In this document: piece by piece, positions 3,309-40,216 of the stretch
Numbering within the stretch: the stretch's first letter is position 1
Layout of the letters: each line of letters begins with the position of its first letter
IMG/VR virus record: IMGVR_UViG_2579779009_000004
Source: a virus
Taxonomy: Duplodnaviria > Heunggongvirae > Uroviricota > Caudoviricetes
Length of the DNA: 40,216 nucleotides
Strand: one strand, 5' to 3'
Notes under the pieces: model-generated
The model's database searches: none
Seen by the model: the letters and a program-made list of their open reading frames with translations, nothing else
What the model was told of the DNA's origin: nothing
Position numbers and translations under genes: made by a program

Positions 3309-3884
3309 CTACGGCAGTGCTGGCCATTCAATATCCTGTGCAGTTGACGTATCAACACGGTTCAGCAACACCCGATACTTTTTCCAGGCTTCCAGCAATG
3401 AGGTTTCTTCCTCCGTTGCGATTTCCAGATCTACAGCATCCTGAAGTGGCGCAATATGCTCACTGGCTACCTGCATCAGGCTGTTTTTTGTTTCTTCCGC
3501 CTCTCGGATCCGGAACAGTTTTTCTGCTTCTGCATCTTTCACCCAGGCTGTGCCGTTCCACTTCTGAAACTCCCCTTCCGGCGATAACCAGGTAACATTT
3601 TCCGGTAACGGACCGAGTTCAGAAATAAACAACGCGTCCCCTGACGCTACGTCATAAACCGTTTTACCCCGATGGTCTTCATCGAGATGCCACGATGCCT
3701 TATCACTGTTGAAAACAGCCACAAAGCCAGCAGGAATATCTGGTGGTGCAATATCGGTACTGTTTGCTGGCAGACCTGTATGAGGCGGAATATATGCGTC
3801 ACCTTCACCAATAAATTCATTAGTTCCGGCCAGCAGATTATAAATTTTTATGGTCCGTGGTTGTTCACTCATTCTGAATGCCAT
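3309..3884 (-). CDS. tfa: tail fibre assembly protein (Tfa)
   Basis: 191-aa ORF immediately downstream of stf; the stf stop and tfa start overlap (TAATG at 3882-3886); typical Tfa size and position. Confidence 0.85.
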
Positions 3885-11469: not shown

Positions 11470-12117
11470 TCAGCGACCAATCACTACAACCTGACCACCA
11501 TCCCCTTCGTCTGCCGTGCTGATCTCCTGAGAGACCACCCGCGACCCCACGCGCATTTCACCGTACAGAACGGGCAGAACATTGCCCTGGGCAACCATGT
11601 TATCCAGTGAGGAGAAATAGGTGTTCTGTTTGCCGTTATCTGTACTTGCTGCCGTGGGCGTCCTGGCTTTCGGTGCCAGCATCTGCGCCACTCCGCCCAG
11701 GATCATACTGGCCCCTGCCGCATACATGCCCGATACAGCCGCGGCACCCAGCCAGCCCACAGGGTTCCACCATGCCACCGCAATCAGCGCCGCCCCCAGC
11801 ACCACCTGAAACACACCGCCACTTTTAGCTCCCGCCAGACGCGGCACGATGTGGATCACGGCACCATTTGCCAGCGGCTCATTAAGACGGGCAGACAATT
11901 CGGTTTCACCTGCATCACGCCCGGCAATGCGTACCTGGTACCAGCCGTCGCTCAGTTTCTGACGAAACGCCGGGATCTGCATGGCCAGCGCCCGGATGGC
12001 TTCGGACCCCGTTTTCACTCGAAGGTCGATGCGGCGGCCAAATCGTTGTAAATCCCCGTAAAGGCAGATGCGTGCCATGCCCGGTGACGCCAGAGGGAGT
12101 GTGTGCGTCGCTGCCAT
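11470..12117 (-). CDS. I: tail assembly protein I
   Basis: 215 aa; C-terminus ...NMVAQGNVLPVLYGEMRVGSRVVSQEISTADEGDGGQVVVIGR as recalled for lambda gpI; overlaps K as in lambda. Confidence 0.85.
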   Translation of the reverse strand: MAATHTLPLASPGMARICLYGDLQRFGRRIDLRVKTGSEAIRALAMQIPAFRQKLSDGWYQVRIAGRDAGETELSARLNEPLANGAVIHIVPRLAGAKSGGVFQVVLGAALIAVAWWNPVGWLGAAAVSGMYAAGASMILGGVAQMLAPKARTPTAASTDNGKQNTYFSSLDNMVAQGNVLPVLYGEMRVGSRVVSQEISTADEGDGGQVVVIGR

Positions 12118-28647: not shown

Positions 28648-28854
28648 CTTCATTTTCACTTTTTTAAATCCAACGACAGACGGCTGGCATTTAAGTATTG
28701 TGAAATATTATCAAATGTAATCATCATTGATTTACAAAAGATACATTTTGCCCCGAAAGGATTCATGTCAGAAACATCAAAAGATGATGTTCTATACTGG
28801 GAACCATGACAACACGGGCATCTAAAGTGAATATGGTTTGTAATATTGTCTACC

Positions 28855-29067
28855 TCAAAGCGCCACTACATGAACAGCGGCAGGACCTTTAGGTCCGTTC
28901 TCAATACCAAATTCAACTTCCTGATTCTCAGTTAATGTTTTGAAATCGTTGCTCTGAATTGCTGAGAAATGGACAAACACATCTTTGCTGCCATCTTTCG
29001 GCGTGATGAAACCAAAACCTTTTTCAGGGTTAAACCATTTCACTAAACCAGTCATTTTGTTAGACAT
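28855..29067 (-). CDS. cspI: cold-shock protein (CspA family)
   Basis: [70 protein letters not shown], a full cold-shock domain with RNP1/RNP2 motifs; position matches cspI of Qin. Confidence 0.9.
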
Positions 29068-29429
29068 AATTATTACCTTTTGAAGAAATTAGCCCTTGGG
29101 CAGAATGGTCCGAAAAAAAATATCAGAGAGAAAAACCAACAAGGAAATCTCAAGAGGTACAAATAATAAAATTATAACAATGACTGCTTCAGATAAATTT
29201 GTAACAAACCAGAACACCATTAACGCATGATTAACCACCCATAGCAAGGATTACTTTTGTAAAGAAAAACACAGCAATGAAAGAATAGCTTTATTTATTA
29301 ATAAAACGTGTCATTCTGATTAAGACCTTTTATCTTACCCTTAAGATTTCAGGAATTTTGGCTCATGGAAGAGTCCTTTTTATTTAAATTTTACATTCCG
29401 CGATGTAAATGTTCCGATTTAATATTACC

Positions 29430-31456: not shown

Positions 31457-31739
31457 TTGAGATTGTGGTGCTTTTTGTGGGAGTCATCCACTTACGCACT
31501 TTGTTTTGCGATGCCAGCAGTTAGCTTCTGCTGTGAAACTATTCATGCAGCAAACCTGCACTTCACCACAATGGTTAGCATACTTTTCCTGATTAAGATT
31601 TTGCCAAATATACTAGCCATTGTTTCATGTATTGGACCTCCTTACTTTTTATTAAAGAGATCCAATATTCACTACTCTGTCCGTATCTCTACTCAGGCAT
31701 CAGCCTTCTTCGTTATCGTATACAGACGAGCGATGAATT

Positions 31740-31955
31740 TTAATCAGTAATGATGACATTTGCTGCTGCAGGACCTTTAGCACCACTCTCTATAGAGAAG
31801 GTAACCTTTTGACCTTCAAATAAGGTTCGATAATTATCATTCTGAATCGCAGAAAAATGCACAAACACATCTTTACTACCATCAACAGGAGAAATAAAGC
31901 CGAAACCTTTATCAGCGTTAAACCATTTTACTAAACCAGTCATTTTATTTGACAT
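31740..31955 (-). CDS. cspB: cold-shock protein (CspA family)
   Basis: [71 protein letters not shown]; a paralogue of the cspI copy at 28855..29067. Confidence 0.9.
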
Positions 31956-32253
31956 TCTACATTCCTTAACTTGAGCCTTTCGGCATAAATGGTTTGCATA
32001 ACAGAAACGACTTCGTACTTAATTGGAGAGACTCAAAGAAGGAATAAGTGAATAACACCTGAAATGAGAACTGCTTTAGTAAACTACTTCGTATATCGTC
32101 TGTTCTTCAAACCGACGCAGTCATTAACTCATAGTTGAACATATGAAGCAATGTTTATTTTAGACATCCAGCCACCTTCAATCCTATCAAAAAAGTAGTT
32201 TTCTCCAGGAACGTGTGTATGGTGCACCAGGTTATCAGTATTAAGGAGTTTTT

Positions 32254-33396: not shown

Positions 33397-34446
33397 TTAC
33401 GCCAGTACGCCAATTGCCAGCGCGCGATCGATAAAACGAAATATCAGCTCCAGTTGGGAGCCATACTTCTCTTCAAATGCCACTGTATCCGTATGCAGCT
33501 CGTTGTGATGCTTTCTGCACAAAGGCAACACAAAGAGATCATGTGCTTTTGTTCCCATTCCGCCCTGCCCGTGACCAATCAGATGATGCGGATCGTCGGC
33601 TGGCATACCGCAGCAAGCACACGGCTGTGTCTTAACCCAACGTGTGTATTTCTCCTTAACCCAGCGGCGACGTTTAGGCAGCTTCATGAAAGATTCCGGA
33701 GACTCTGGATCAACGGTGATGCTTACCACCGTCTTTTCCTGTGGTGTTTTTTGTTGCTGGTGGGCGTAAGGCAACGGTGCAAGATTTTTTGTGCGTTGTT
33801 TCAATATGCTGGTGGCGGTCTGCTCTCCCGGTACGATGTCGCTTTCGCGGTACACCGAGCAGATTTTTTCCGCTGGTAATCCCAGCGAACGACGCGATAC
33901 AGCCTCAGGTAGTGCATCCACCACCTGATTGCAGACCGCCCACCAGGATAATTCAGCCAAAGATAATTCCCGCTCCTGCGTACCGCTTATTGCGTGACGG
34001 ATGACGTCAATCACCCATGCTGTCAGATTTTGTTGAGCAAGCAGCTCCAGTGATTCCGATGTCTGGTCACGCAGTTGGTTGTCGCAGTGCCAACACAACA
34101 CCATTGCGCCGGTACCATAACGGTGAATGACTGTTTCAGAGTGATGGTAATCGCCATTAGGCCACTGGCAGGATGTAACATGACGTAATAGCCAGTCAGA
34201 CAATGCGCCAACACCGCCAGCAGCACGAATCACCCGTTCGTTACTAAAAAACGGCAGCAATGTTTTGTCTTCCGCCAGCGACTGGCGAACGGCAGGAACG
34301 ACTCCGGATGGCAGATTACGCATGCTTTTTGGTTCCGGTTCCACCAGCACTCGAGGATTATGAAATATCTGTATGGATTCACGGCCCGGCTTAAGGACCA
34401 CCAGCCCAAGCTCAGGCACCAGAACAGGTCTAAGTAATACCCGCAC
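33397..34446 (-). CDS. DUF968-family protein with C-terminal HNH-like motif (YdfU-like)
   Basis: C-terminal ...CACCGMPADDPHHLIGHGQGGMGTKAHDLFVLPLCRKHHNELH is HNH-like. Start proposed at the GTG at 34444-34446 (GGAGG 4 nt upstream, one nt after the upstream stop) giving 349 aa; the ORF-track start at 34485 is the alternative. Confidence 0.7.
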   Translation of the reverse strand: MRVLLRPVLVPELGLVVLKPGRESIQIFHNPRVLVEPEPKSMRNLPSGVVPAVRQSLAEDKTLLPFFSNERVIRAAGGVGALSDWLLRHVTSCQWPNGDYHHSETVIHRYGTGAMVLCWHCDNQLRDQTSESLELLAQQNLTAWVIDVIRHAISGTQERELSLAELSWWAVCNQVVDALPEAVSRRSLGLPAEKICSVYRESDIVPGEQTATSILKQRTKNLAPLPYAHQQQKTPQEKTVVSITVDPESPESFMKLPKRRRWVKEKYTRWVKTQPCACCGMPADDPHHLIGHGQGGMGTKAHDLFVLPLCRKHHNELHTDTVAFEEKYGSQLELIFRFIDRALAIGVLA

Positions 34447-34447
34447 G

Positions 34448-34726
34448 TTACCTCCAGATCCGTTGCTGGAAAGTGCGGGACGCACGTGGTGGGCGTTCGG
34501 AGTAAGGCAATCTGACTGAGATTATCCAGTGACGGTAGTCGAGGCTAAGGGCTTTCTTAACCTCGTATCCGCGCCTGCGGTAACACTGAATTATCCATTC
34601 AGCCTGCTCTTCAGTGCATGGAGGGTGTTGGAACCATTCAGACTTGAATGCGTGAGAATACCGCTCGTGCGTGCAGACAAGAACGGGCGAATTATCAGAA
34701 TTGTAATATTTTACGTTGCGTGCCAT
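34448..34726 (-). CDS. hypothetical protein (92 aa)
   Basis: ORF with GGAG 7 nt upstream of the ATG; Cys/His-containing; no family recognised. Confidence 0.45.
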   Translation of the reverse strand: MARNVKYYNSDNSPVLVCTHERYSHAFKSEWFQHPPCTEEQAEWIIQCYRRRGYEVKKALSLDYRHWIISVRLPYSERPPRASRTFQQRIWR

Positions 34727-34792
34727 CGGTTTTCTCCGGTGGCACGGTGTTACTCAGCGGGAGTTCAGCCCCGCGCAAGATTGTAGATGAGT

Positions 34793-35044
34793 TTATTCTT
34801 CTGCAAAAGCTGAAAAGCCTGCTTTTATTCCGATCTCTTTCAGTGCCTGTAATGAAGTGACAAACTCACCTTCGCGCAAGATAAATCCGTCTGTCACTCG
34901 ACCATCCACAAAATTAATTAACGCAGCCCCATTCTTTCGCAAACACATAATGCGGTAATGACTAACAAGATTTCCATTTTCAACGCACACAGCATAGAGG
35001 CCATCTTCACAAAAAATTTTACGCAGTTCTTCGATGTTCATCAT
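34793..35044 (-). CDS. hypothetical protein (83 aa), possibly Rem-like by synteny
   Basis: ORF with GGAAGGA Shine-Dalgarno; same size and position as rem (between ydfU and hokD) in K-12 Qin as I recall; the sequence identity is not verified. Confidence 0.5.
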   Translation of the reverse strand: MMNIEELRKIFCEDGLYAVCVENGNLVSHYRIMCLRKNGAALINFVDGRVTDGFILREGEFVTSLQALKEIGIKAGFSAFAEE

Positions 35045-35160
35045 CAGAATCCTTCCGGATAATTAGCTCTCCCCTTTAAGGGACCATCCCTCTTATCCCT
35101 GCGCGCTACTTAAGTATTTTTGATTCTATTCCGGCACCGTCCAGAACTTCAAACGCGTTG

Positions 35161-35192
35161 AAAATAAAAACAAAAACCCGCCGAAGCGGGTT
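35161..35192 (-). terminator. rho-independent terminator downstream of hokD
   Basis: Hairpin aacccgcc-gaa-gcgggtt (about 35175-35192) followed on the minus strand by a U-rich tract (plus 35161-35176 is A-rich). Confidence 0.55.
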
Positions 35193-35260
35193 AAGTGCGG
35201 GTGCGTTGAGGATGCCTGCCACATCAGAGGTGGCGAGGGATTTCTCCCTCGCCGGGTTTC

Positions 35261-35416
35261 TTACTCCTCAGGTTCGTAAGCTGTGAAGACAGCGACCTCC
35301 GTCTGGCCGGTTCGGATTCGTACCTCGCAGAGGTCTTTCCTCGTTACCAGTGCCGTCACTATGACGGTTAAACAGATGACGATCAGGGCGATTAACATCG
35401 CCTTTTGCTGCTTCAT
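35261..35416 (-). CDS. hokD: Hok-family type I toxin (HokD/RelF)
   Basis: MKQQKAMLIALIVICLTVIVTALVTRKDLCEVRIRTGQTEVAVFTAYEPEE, 51 aa, Hok signature; the ORF-track extension upstream is rejected. Confidence 0.9.
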   Translation of the reverse strand: MKQQKAMLIALIVICLTVIVTALVTRKDLCEVRIRTGQTEVAVFTAYEPEE

Positions 35417-35636
35417 AGCCTGCTTCTCCTTGCCTTTCGGCACGTAAGAGGCTAACCTACATATGTCTAGCATGAAATTGGCCTCAGATTAATGTTAAGC
35501 GTCTTGCAGGACGCGTAATGTTAACTGGGGCTTTTCTCTATCTGCCGTTGGTGTTCATGCCCGAGGCAGATAGCCTCAAGCACCCGCAGCCATTCTACTT
35601 AACTACTGAAGTGGTCAACAAAAACTGGCCACCGAG

Positions 35637-36784
<1,148 letters not shown>

Positions 36785-36856
36785 TATGGCACCTGTGTTG
36801 TTCTGAGGTGAGCATATCACCTCTGTTCAGGTGGCCAAATTCAGTAAACCACTTCA

Positions 36857-38577
36857 ATGACGAACTGGCCTACGCTCTCTGGCCTGGTGATGTGGATGCC
36901 GGAAACATTGACGGCAGCATCCATCGCTGGGCAAAAAAAGAAGTTATCGACAACGACCGCGAAGACTGGAAGCGTATCTCGGCATCAATGCGCAAACAGC
37001 CTGATGCCCTTCGCTACGACCGCCAGACTATTTTTGGCCTTGTCCGTGAGCGTCCGATCGACATTCACAAAGATCCCGTAGCACTGAACAAATATATCTG
37101 CGAATACCTGACGACAAAGGGCGTGTTTGAGAATGAAGAAACAGACCTGGGCACTGTTGATGTTCTCCAGTCATCAGAAACACAAACTGATGCAGTGGAA
37201 ACTGAGGTATCTGATATCCCAAAAAATGAAACCGCGCCGGAAGCTGAACCATCTGTAGAGCGTGAGGGGCCGTTCTATTTCCTCTTCGCAGATAAGGACG
37301 GAGAAAAATACGGTCGCGCAAACAAACTTTCTGGTCTGGATAAGGCACTGGCTGCTGGCGCCACTGAAATCACAAAAGAAGAATATTTTGCCCGAAAAAA
37401 TGGCACATACACGGGCTTACCGCAAAATGTAGATACCGCTGAAGATTCAGAACAACCAGAGCCGATAAAAGTTACCGCTGACGAAGTAAACAAAATTATG
37501 CAGGCAGCCAATATCAGCCAGCCTGACGCTGATAAGTTGCTTGCTGCATCACGTGGTGAATTTGTTGAAGGGATTAGTGACCCGAATGATCCGAAATGGG
37601 TTAAGGGGATCCAGACCCGCGATTCTGTGAACCAGAACCAGCATGAATCGGAACGGAACTACCAAAAAGCGGAACAAAACAGTCCAAATGCGTTACAAAA
37701 CGAGCCAGTAACGAAACAGCCTGAACCAGTAGCGCAACAGGAAGTGGAAAAAGTCTGCACCGCCTGCGGTCAGACCGGCGGCGGCAACTGCCCTGATTGT
37801 GGCGCGGTGATGGGCGACGCAACATACCAGGAAACATTCGATGAAGAGTATCAGGTTGAAGTTCAGGAAGATGATCCGGAGGAAATGCAAGGCGCTGAAC
37901 ATCCACACAAGGAGAACACTGGCGGCAATCAGCATCACAATAGCGATAATGAAACTGGCGAGACGGCAGATCACCCAATTAAGGTGAACGGTCATCACGA
38001 AATCACATCCACCAGCAGGGCGTGTGACCATCTAATGATCGACCTTGAAACCATGGGAAAAAATCCTGATGCCCCGATCATCTCAATAGGTGCAATATTT
38101 TTCGATCCGCAAACCGGAGATATGGGACCGGAATTTAGTAAGACTATCGATCTGGAAACTGCTGGCGGAGTCATTGATCGGGACACCATTAAATGGTGGC
38201 TTAAGCAATCACGCGAAGCGCAATCTGCCATTATGACCGATGAAATCCCGTTAGATGATGCACTGTTACAATTGCGGGAATTTATCGACGAAAACTCCGG
38301 TGAATTTTTTGTTCAGGTTTGGGGAAATGGAGCCAACTTCGACAACACGATTTTGCGCCGTTCATACGAACGGCAGGGGATCCCCTGCCCGTGGCGTTAC
38401 TACAACGATCGCGATGTACGCACAATCGTTGAGCTGGGGAAAGCCATAGACTTCGATGCCAGAACGGCTATTCCATTCGAAGGTGAGCGCCATAATGCAC
38501 TTGATGACGCCCGTTACCAGGCAAAATACGTTTCAGTTATCTGGCAAAAACTGATCCCGAGTCAGGCTGATTCTTAA
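36857..38577 (+). pseudogene. 5'-truncated gene encoding a protein with a C-terminal DEDDh (DnaQ-like) 3'-5' exonuclease domain
   Basis: The reading frame runs straight out of the IS911 right end with no credible start or Shine-Dalgarno after the IS; the C-terminal region has Exo I/II/III motifs (HLMIDLETMG, VWGNGANFDNTIL, HNALDDARYQAKY); it is upstream of xis and int. Confidence 0.6.
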
Positions 38578-38649
38578 TGTTCAACTGTCGCCGGTTGTGA
38601 CTGGTATTCTGCAACCGGCGCTCGTCTGATGTAAGAGATAAAGAAATCG

Positions 38650-38901
38650 ATGAGCGAAGTAATCATGATTGTCTCTCCCGGCAAATGGGTATCCGAAGAG
38701 CAGTTAATTGCGCTGAAAGGAATAAAAAAAGGTACGTTAAAAAAGGCCCGGGAAAAATCGTTTATGGAAGGAAGGGAATATAAGCATGTCGCTCATGACG
38801 GTATGCCATGGGATAACAGTCCATGCTTTTACAACCTGGAAGAAATTGATCGCTGGATTGAGCGCCAGGCATCAGCGAGACCAAGACGTCATCTTACTTG
38901 A
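38650..38901 (+). CDS. xis: putative excisionase / small DNA-binding protein
   Basis: 83-aa basic ORF immediately upstream of, and co-oriented with, the integrase. Confidence 0.5.
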   Translation: MSEVIMIVSPGKWVSEEQLIALKGIKKGTLKKAREKSFMEGREYKHVAHDGMPWDNSPCFYNLEEIDRWIERQASARPRRHLT

Positions 38902-38935
38902 CTAAAAGCCACACTAACTAATGAGAGAAGTTGAA

Positions 38936-40216
38936 ATGAAATATCCGACAGGCGTGGAAAACCATGGAGGGAAATTACGTATCTGGTTTGTTTATAAAGG
39001 CGTAAGAGTCAGGGAAAATCTGGGGGTTCCTGACACAGCAAAAAACAGGCGCGTTGCAGGTGAACTACGCTCCTCTGTTTGTTACGCAATAAAAACTGGT
39101 GTTTTCGACTATGCAAAACAGTTTCCCTCCTCACGCAATCTGGAAAAATTTGGTGAGGCCCGACAAGATTTAACCATAAAAGAACTGGCTGAAAAATTTC
39201 TGGCACTGAAAGAAACTGAAGTCGCCAAAACATCACTCAACACATACCGTGCCGTCATCAAAAATATCCTGAGCATAATCGGTGAAAAAAATCTTGCCTC
39301 ATCGATTAATAAAGAAAAATTACTGGAGGTTCGTAAAGAGTTACTGACTGGATACCAGATCCCCAAAAGTAACTATATTGTTACACAACCAGGGAGATCG
39401 GCTGTAACTGTAAATAATTACATGACAAATCTTAACGCCGTGTTCCAGTTTGGTGTTGATAACGGTTACCTGGCAGATAATCCGTTTAAGGGGATCTCGC
39501 CATTAAAGGAATCAAGAACCATTCCGGATCCTCTTTCGCGGGAAGAATTTATCCGTCTTATCGATGCGTGCAGAAATCAGCAAGCAAAAAATTTATGGTG
39601 TGTTTCTGTTTATACTGGCGTTCGCCCTGGTGAGCTGTGTGCACTTGGATGGGAGGACATAGATCTGAAAAATGGAACAATGATGATCAGGAGAAATTTA
39701 GCAAAAGACCGTTTCACGGTACCAAAAACACAGGCGGGAACCAATCGGGTCATTCATCTTATTAAGCCAGCAATCGACGCTCTCCGGAGTCAGATGACAT
39801 TAACGAGACTGAGCAAAGAGCATATCATTGATGTTCACCTCAGAGAGTATGGCAGAACAGAAAAACAAAAATGCACCTTTGTTTTTCAACCTGAAGTGTC
39901 AGCGAGAGTAAAAAATTATGGTGACCATTTTACCGTTGACTCAATAAGGCAGATGTGGGACGCAGCGATAAAACGTGCCGGACTCCGCCATCGAAAATCA
40001 TATCAGTCGAGACATACTTATGCCTGCTGGTCGCTGACAGCTGGTGCTAACCCGGCATTTATAGCAAACCAGATGGGCCATGCAGATGCGCAAATGGTAT
40101 TTCAGGTATACGGAAAATGGATGTCTGAAAACAATAATGCACAGGTAGCTTTGTTAAATACACAGTTAAGCGAGTTTGCCCCAACCATGCCCCATAACGA
40201 AGCAATGAAAAATTAA
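38936..40216 (+). CDS. int: tyrosine site-specific integrase
   Basis: About 426 aa from MKYPTGVENHGGKLRIWF...; a C-terminal catalytic domain with conserved Arg, His-x-x-Arg and Tyr residues (…VYTGVRPGEL…HTYACWSLTAGANPAFIANQMGHADAQMVFQVYGKW…); the stop is the last triplet of the window. Confidence 0.9.
   Translation: MKYPTGVENHGGKLRIWFVYKGVRVRENLGVPDTAKNRRVAGELRSSVCYAIKTGVFDYAKQFPSSRNLEKFGEARQDLTIKELAEKFLALKETEVAKTSLNTYRAVIKNILSIIGEKNLASSINKEKLLEVRKELLTGYQIPKSNYIVTQPGRSAVTVNNYMTNLNAVFQFGVDNGYLADNPFKGISPLKESRTIPDPLSREEFIRLIDACRNQQAKNLWCVSVYTGVRPGELCALGWEDIDLKNGTMMIRRNLAKDRFTVPKTQAGTNRVIHLIKPAIDALRSQMTLTRLSKEHIIDVHLREYGRTEKQKCTFVFQPEVSARVKNYGDHFTVDSIRQMWDAAIKRAGLRHRKSYQSRHTYACWSLTAGANPAFIANQMGHADAQMVFQVYGKWMSENNNAQVALLNTQLSEFAPTMPHNEAMKN

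Follow-up and report, generated by a model that had tools for sequence, protein, structure and literature searches.

The hokD gene in the window, by which we mean the whole stretch of 40,216 nucleotides that was analysed (IMG/VR virus record IMGVR_UViG_2579779009_000004, Caudoviricetes), is very probably part of a complete and self-contained hok/mok/sok type I module of the hokW/hokD type, beside which an ISEc52-associated deletion has cut into the hok promoter. Positions 35161..35606 hold the whole hok transcription unit, from the boundary of the IS to the end of the terminator T-run. Modules of this kind are known and usual in such a genomic setting, the deletion alongside is a routine IS-associated one, and the whole is ordinary, already-known biology.

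The toxin gene is an ORF of 51 codons on the minus strand, read from 35416 to 35261, and its product is identical to HokD. In a Pfam search it matched the family HOK_GEF (PF01848) with E=1.2e-23 over profile positions 1-42 of 42, as a full-length member of the Hok/Gef toxins, which have ~50 aa and a transmembrane helix at the N-terminus. RefSeq gives the label hokD to a locus that is 100% identical, and to matching loci in thousands of E. coli genomes. The module is situated upstream of the Q antiterminator gene of a Qin-family lambdoid prophage, where its neighbours are rem-ydfU-Q. Exactly 190 nt (35417..35606) lie between the hok ATG and the end of ISEc52, whose transposase is encoded on the same strand; the sequence-only reading of this DNA was right to place hokD directly downstream of, and co-oriented with, an IS transposase. 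Codon 47 of hok is TAC and is followed by G, and the UACG motif (35278-35275, minus strand) is retained; A-to-I editing by TadA, from Tyr to Cys, has been described at the equivalent position of the hok family including hokD (bioRxiv 10.1101/2025.08.07.668861, PMC12214031). Passages of the same preprint cite earlier work in which overexpression of HokD was toxic, and in which chromosomal hok loci, as formerly tested, gave no post-segregational killing (cited in bioRxiv 10.1101/2025.08.07.668861). An intact hok locus therefore need not be an active one. The parts of the module are the following.

35261..35416, minus strand: hok toxin ORF, 51 aa (Pfam HOK_GEF; RefSeq hokD, WP_000813254.1).
35261..35473, minus strand: mok-like ORF, 70 aa, in frame with hok (from the ORF list; 64/70 residues as in MokW of 933W).
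35411..35585, minus strand: complete 5' leader of the hok mRNA, with tac, ucb, the mok Shine-Dalgarno and start, and the Sok target (RF01794; predicted +1 at G35585).
35465..35535, plus strand: Sok-like antisense RNA, 71 nt (gapless transfer from the sokW misc_RNA annotated in 933W and VT2-Sakai).
35430..35458, plus strand: TTGCCT-17 nt-TAACCT, the putative promoter of Sok, with its end 6 nt upstream of the Sok start (position and homology only).
35574..35585, minus strand: tac, the 5'-terminal element of the hok mRNA (predicted pairing with 35199-35211).
35199..35211, minus strand: fbi, the fold-back inhibitory element, in the 3' UTR of hok (predicted partner of tac).
35165..35192, minus strand: intrinsic terminator of the hok mRNA, a hairpin (35192-35175) followed by a T-run (terminator scan).

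According to an Rfam search, the family RF01794 matches 35585..35411 on the hok strand with 112.7 bits, against a gathering score of 59, and over model positions 1-157 of 157. The same model, run on each of them, also matches the loci of E. coli M16807, of 933W and of O157:H16, whereas a search of the K-12-type relE-hokD locus with RF01794 gave no match. The family is named "sok" and is modelled in the hok-sense orientation, with the end of the model at the hok AUG. In 933W the match lies on the hok strand (L007 1520-1694), and the annotated sokW is found inside it on the opposite strand (1570-1640). A match to RF01794 therefore marks a conserved hok leader with the Sok gene on the other strand, and a Sok strand read straight off such matches would be wrong.

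The window aligns with 933W without gaps between the -10 region and the stop codon of hok, so that the annotations of mok and Sok can be transferred directly. The mok ATG (35473-35471) is preceded, at a distance of 8 nt, by a GAGG Shine-Dalgarno sequence (35485-35482). The mok-like ORF is 91% identical to the annotated MokW and has the same in-frame layout as in 933W, and its coupling to hok is predicted. The Sok candidate agrees with sokW in position, strand and hairpin, the function of sokW itself being known only for Sp5 (PMC8621323). In its predicted fold (-28.7 kcal/mol) the 5' tail stays unpaired over the mok start and is followed by a long hairpin and then by a U-tail, and a fold of 83 nt of the Sok region has -30.5 kcal/mol with z = -4.6. 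The putative Sok promoter has the same sequence in 933W and M16807; a simple consensus promoter scan did not call it, because its -10 is weak. Promoters were assigned by position and conservation, and the hok +1 and the ends of Sok by homology and position. Taken together, the 190 nt upstream of hok contain a complete hok leader with mok and a putative Sok antisense gene, so that the antitoxin would be Sok and not RelB, and the earlier proposal that hokD had lost its co-regulated antitoxin system is not supported. The search of the upstream interval for a Sok-like RNA, which that proposal had itself put forward, was an apt check and gave a positive outcome.

The Sok 5' tail and the mok start differ at several positions from those of hokW in 933W (35465-35490 versus L007 1615-1640), while the remaining leader is nearly identical. 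Co-resident hok copies may be recognised separately, each by its own Sok RNA. Weak Rfam matches in the hok 3' UTR and leader (isrK with 25.7 bits, rsmX, ceN48) are far under the gathering score and were taken as chance matches to terminator-like hairpins. Elsewhere in the window, two cspA-type thermoregulator leaders of Qin-type cold-shock genes (28828-29213 and 31724-32116, both on the minus strand) and an IS009 RNA (3343-3541, minus strand) score above the Rfam gathering score.

Folding of the transcript of 423 nt that runs from G35585 through the terminator gave a minimum free energy of -170.6 kcal/mol (z = -7.1). In this fold all 12 of the 12 nt of tac (35585-35574) are paired with the fbi element, with one bulge, and the fbi sequence is invariant in the window, 933W, M16807 and K-12-type loci. 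When 50-60 nt are trimmed from the 3' end, tac is predicted to refold as a local 5' hairpin, and in predicted folds the tac-fbi pairing survives 5' extensions of 22-250 nt. These folds are thermodynamic predictions on single sequences. A switch from a closed to an open form through tac and fbi has been described for the R1 hok mRNA (PMC9841398), and the fold predicted here agrees with that published mechanism. If the module behaves like R1 hok/sok and Sp5 hokW/sokW, a hok mRNA of ~420 nt (35585 to ~35165, minus strand) would be made in a closed form, in which tac pairs with fbi and which is neither translated nor bound by Sok. Slow trimming of its 3' end would open the mRNA and expose the Shine-Dalgarno sequence and the start codon of mok. 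There the 71-nt Sok RNA from the opposite strand would pair, and translation of mok, and hence of hok, would be blocked.

The upstream border of the module is set by an insertion sequence, and the far end of this element lies in a truncated prophage gene.

35607..36856, minus strand: ISEc52 (IS3 family, IS911-like), 1,250 bp (inverted repeats; Pfam HTH_Tnp_1 and rve; 99.8% identity to annotated ISEc52).
36857..38577, plus strand: prophage exonuclease gene, truncated at its 5' end with ~250 N-terminal codons missing (Pfam Rv2179c-like 3'-5' exoribonuclease domain); the other endpoint of the deletion.

The element has the features of the IS3 family: a length of ~1.25 kb, inverted repeats that end in TG...CA, and orfA (HTH) and orfB (DDE rve) on one strand. 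The terminal inverted repeats are 27 nt long and imperfect (TGAAGTGG...CCACTTCA; IRR at 35607-35633 and IRL at 36830-36856). The reading frame orfA (HTH_Tnp_1) occupies 36787..36482 and the orfB region (rve) ends at 35637, both on the hok strand. A 3-bp target duplication was sought at the ends of ISEc52 and none was found, the plus-strand flanks being TAC and ATG.

In E. coli M16807 the same prophage lies next to rspB, and it matches the window over 34319-35606 at 100% and over 36857-40216 at 99.97%. Between these two matches M16807 has 7,706 bp (L006 4008-11713), where the window has the 1,250-bp IS. The lost segment comprises the first ~250 exonuclease codons, ydfD, dicB, the DicF RNA, ydfA/B, the repressor, cro, ydaT, replication genes, DUF977 and DUF4209. 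The intact exonuclease gene of M16807 is 2,472 nt long, and position 36857 of the window aligns inside it, at L006 position 4007. The lack of a target duplication fits either an adjacent deletion mediated by the IS or a recombination of two copies. ISEc52 has replaced 7,706 bp of the prophage, probably in an IS-associated deletion that left no target-site duplication.

None of the 5,426 complete E. coli genomes has the junction of hok with the IS, and the 34-nt junction sequence had no match among the GTDB species representatives, from which it follows that the deletion is recent and strain-specific. In the best match among 6,187 E. coli records the alignment stops exactly at the IS boundary, and no E. 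coli record has hok, IS and exonuclease as one colinear piece. Two "88%" matches to the hok-IS-exonuclease sequence were rejected, as each is made up of three scattered pieces in another arrangement.

The prophage is grounded by the 7.7-kb deletion. It retains int/xis and late genes, and has neither an immunity nor a replication region nor an early rightward promoter to drive Q. At the left end of the IS, an ORF that starts with a GTG at 36808 runs into the remaining exonuclease frame, and judged from the reading frames an IS-exonuclease fusion product is formally possible. Intact relatives (M16807, L006 ~11600-11700; also L002 and L005) have an unannotated hydrophobic ORF of ~30 codons with an AGGAGG ribosome-binding site, which stops immediately ahead of the hok -35 and which the window has lost. 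In the O157:H16 strain Res13-Lact-PEA12-26 (L005 3251-3680), a second, independent IS911-like element of the same orientation lies upstream of hokD; its distance from hok is greater by 139 nt, and the hok promoter there is intact.

At the junction itself two promoter elements meet.

35592..35597, minus strand: TAGAAT, the -10 hexamer native to hok, 6 nt upstream of the predicted +1 (shared by the window, M16807, 933W and O157:H16).
35613..35618, minus strand: outward-facing -35 hexamer TTGACC at the right end of the IS, 15 nt from the hok -10 (from the sequence).

In the intact loci the hok promoter reads TTGGCG-17 nt-TAGAAT-6 nt-G(+1), and in 933W and O157:H16 both TAGAAT and the surroundings of the -35 are conserved. 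In the window the IS junction is found 21 nt upstream of the predicted hok +1, within the spacer between -35 and -10. The native -35 TTGGCG, as in M16807, is replaced by IS sequence, while the -10 and everything downstream are untouched. One breakpoint of the deletion falls between the hok -35 and -10, with TTGGCG gone, TAGAAT kept and the TTGACC of the IS brought to a suboptimal distance. The position 17 nt from the -10 is now occupied by TGTTGA, which agrees with the consensus in 2/6 positions, compared to 5/6 for TTGACC and 4/6 for TTGGCG. A consensus promoter scan did not call the hybrid hok promoter.

The right inverted repeat of IS911 carries an outward -35 that forms fusion promoters, for which a spacing of 17 bp is optimal, and the transposase promoter of IS911 is weak, 40-fold under the junction promoter (PMC9330008). 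TTGACC would be the corresponding -35 of ISEc52, since it would come to lie 17 nt from a TTTACT in IRL if the two ends of the element abutted with a 3-bp spacer. A terminator scan from the orfB stop to the end of the IS found none, so that weak read-through into hok is possible. A read-through transcript from the IS would stay locked by tac-fbi pairing and controlled by Sok, and the change of promoter would therefore be tolerated. From these points we infer that hok is transcribed at its former level or a lower one, and not at a raised one, with Sok unaffected and no harm to the cell. The displaced -35 leaves hok without a constitutive promoter entirely of its own; it is a lesion of one member and gives no ground to exclude the locus from the hok family. 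The earlier statement that the native promoter had been lost is accordingly correct for the -35, which the IS junction has removed, and incorrect for the -10. Its sequel, that expression would depend on read-through from the IS or on a cryptic promoter, asks a fair question as far as a hybrid or weakened promoter or read-through is concerned. A narrower point is reasonable, namely that the native promoter is damaged and that signals derived from the IS may contribute.

Could the locus be dead? Loss of the -35 might have silenced hok so that only Sok is made, which would leave a decaying remnant like the IS-inactivated hok loci reported from K-12. We consider this possible, though rather unlikely. 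The removal of the native -35, with the poor TGTTGA in the 17-nt position, speaks for it, as does the grounding of the prophage, and with a spacer of 15 nt the hok promoter may have next to no activity, which would make the module silent rather than functional. Pedersen and Gerdes are said to have found in 1999 that K-12 hok loci were inactivated by IS150 and IS186. Moreover, hok/sok loci of K-12 have been described as inactive (PMC1635323). On the other hand, the stretch from the -10 through the terminator is 100% identical to M16807 and has no sign of decay, and the TTGACC/15-nt/TAGAAT promoter and read-through from the IS could each give some transcription. The absence of the junction from the complete genomes indicates a recent event, whose decay would not yet be visible.

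Could the IS, conversely, have activated hok? The -35 in IRR together with the hok -10, read-through from the transposase, or both, would then lift the hok mRNA above its native level and shift the balance of hok to Sok, and the outcome would be a stronger addiction or abortive-infection device, or a module coupled to expression of the IS. TTGACC is nearer to the consensus than the native hexamer, the IRR -35 of the IS911 type is known to create fusion promoters (PMC9330008), and the IS is co-oriented with hok with no terminator intervening. Against this, the spacer has 15 nt and not the optimal 17, and the IS911 transposase promoter is a weak one (PMC9330008); the tac-fbi lock is still predicted when the transcript is extended at its 5' end, and the putative Sok gene is undamaged; and raised transcription of a toxin would be counter-selected. 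Activation of this kind therefore seems improbable to us. We give slightly less credence to a working hybrid of the IS -35 and the hok -10, and/or transposase read-through into hok, that would tie the supply of toxin mRNA to the IS and not to the prophage. If it were true, the locus would be a natural case of an IS rewiring a type I toxin-antitoxin module, and IS911-like insertions upstream of hokD might recur for that reason, a second one having been seen in O157:H16.

On a model that follows the sequence-only reading, hokD would have been the distal gene of a relB-relE-hokD operon, from which the IS or the deletion removed relBE and the promoter and left an orphan hokD without an antitoxin, in need of read-through from the IS or of a cryptic promoter. 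In its favour are the relB-relE-hokD order of K-12-type genomes and a co-oriented IS with no terminator after its orfB stop, next to a deletion without target duplication. The model is hardly tenable, because the 190 nt are a full hok leader with a predicted Sok and not remnants of relE, because homology to the K-12 relE-hokD locus begins only 14 nt before the ATG, because no relBE is found among the 7.7 kb that the intact and 100% identical relative M16807 still has, and because RelBE is a type II system, unrelated to the control of Hok and not its antitoxin.

The comparison of the two forms of hokD in E. coli supports the reading of the locus as a self-contained module. K-12-type genomes do carry relB-relE-hokD, as the sequence-only reading had it, and upstream of the 14 nt that they share with the window before the hok ATG their sequence is relE. 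The window has no relB and relE directly upstream of hok and is not a relBE-hokD operon, and M16807 is likewise without both. That no relB or relE lies in the 190 bp was confirmed by a tblastn search of the entire 40-kb window with K-12-type RelB and RelE, which returned only chance matches (E>1) and none near the locus. The further claim that relBE had been lost from the locus is contradicted by M16807, whose flanks are 100% and 99.97% identical and whose intervening 7,706 bp contain no relBE. As judged from these sequences, relBE appears never to have been part of the hok locus of the window, and its lineage shows no sign of a former relBE there.

Among the 5,426 complete E. coli genomes, the full-leader locus of hokD type (counted where at least 80% of the query was covered) is present in 3,450, and the relE-hokD junction, which is the K-12-type junction without a leader, in 1,173. 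With its own leader hokD is commoner than behind relE, and the sequence-only reading fails on the point by which it had proposed to be judged, since hokD is normally an independent unit and its occurrence without relBE is not an anomaly. The ancestral hokD ORF is reported to have had ~70 codons and to have been shortened to 51 by integration of relBE (PMC6379469). The relBE-hokD arrangement of K-12 is a derived state, in which relBE stands in place of the leader, as is already stated in the literature.

The value of the analysis is therefore mainly corrective. The relBE-hokD operon of K-12 is the exception, and the usual hokD of prophages is a self-contained hok/mok/sok module; because the module with the full leader is the usual form, "hokD without relBE" is normal and needs no special explanation. 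The sole strain-specific feature is the ISEc52-associated 7.7-kb deletion, which incidentally cut the hok promoter between -35 and -10. This deletion offers, on a modest scale, a natural experiment on the amount of hok transcription that a type I module requires, and it opens no new question.

Among known systems, hokW/mokW/sokW of the Stx2 phages 933W and VT2-Sakai (Sp5) may be compared with the window in most respects. The module (35606..35165) is 93.5% identical to it in nucleotides over 94% of its length, and the locus of phage HannyBb is 99.3% identical to the module of the window. As in the window, 933W and VT2-Sakai have a 70-codon mok, of which 64/70 amino acids are identical, in frame with a 51-codon hok, and sokW occupies the same position on the same strand as the putative Sok of the window; both are found in lambdoid phages or prophages. 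For hokW-sokW of Sp5 it has been demonstrated by experiment that the toxin is neutralised by an antisense RNA antitoxin, as in a type I system (PMC8621323). Compared with hokW, the window has substitutions in the Sok 5' tail, in the mok start region and in the C-terminus of Hok, and the sequence of the terminator is different. The neighbourhood differs as well, as hokW of 933W adjoins ygiW-like and Ea22-like genes and the hok of the window lies upstream of rem-ydfU-Q. The -35 of the promoter is replaced by the end of an IS in the window only.

The hokD of the K-12 prophage Qin (relF), the third gene of relB-relE-hokD, shares with the window the identical 51-aa Hok, the 3' UTR with fbi and terminator, and the downstream neighbours rem, ydfU and ydfT/Q. 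It is without the whole leader, that is tac, the mok start, the Sok gene and the promoter, whereas the window has the leader and no relBE. Unlike the hok of the window, it is transcribed from the relBE promoter.

The elements of hok/sok (parB) of plasmid R1 were also found or predicted here, namely the tac-fbi pair, a mok with a GAGG Shine-Dalgarno sequence and a candidate antisense Sok. The Sok of R1 and the predicted Sok RNA of the window have in common a single-stranded 5' tail and a terminator hairpin, and the two loci belong to the same Rfam and Pfam families; the Sok hairpin of the window is ~16 nt longer than in the Rfam consensus. In R1 mok is out of frame with hok, while in the window it is in frame, as in mokW. 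The R1 system is located on a plasmid and the locus of the window in a prophage.

Finally, the junction resembles the fusion promoters of the IS911 type, in that the TTGACC at the right end of ISEc52 faces outward and abuts a genuine -10, TAGAAT (PMC9330008). It differs from them in its spacing, which is 15 nt rather than ~17. The -10, moreover, comes from an existing promoter whose -35 has been displaced, and to judge from this arrangement the event would be a promoter swap and not the activation of a silent gene.
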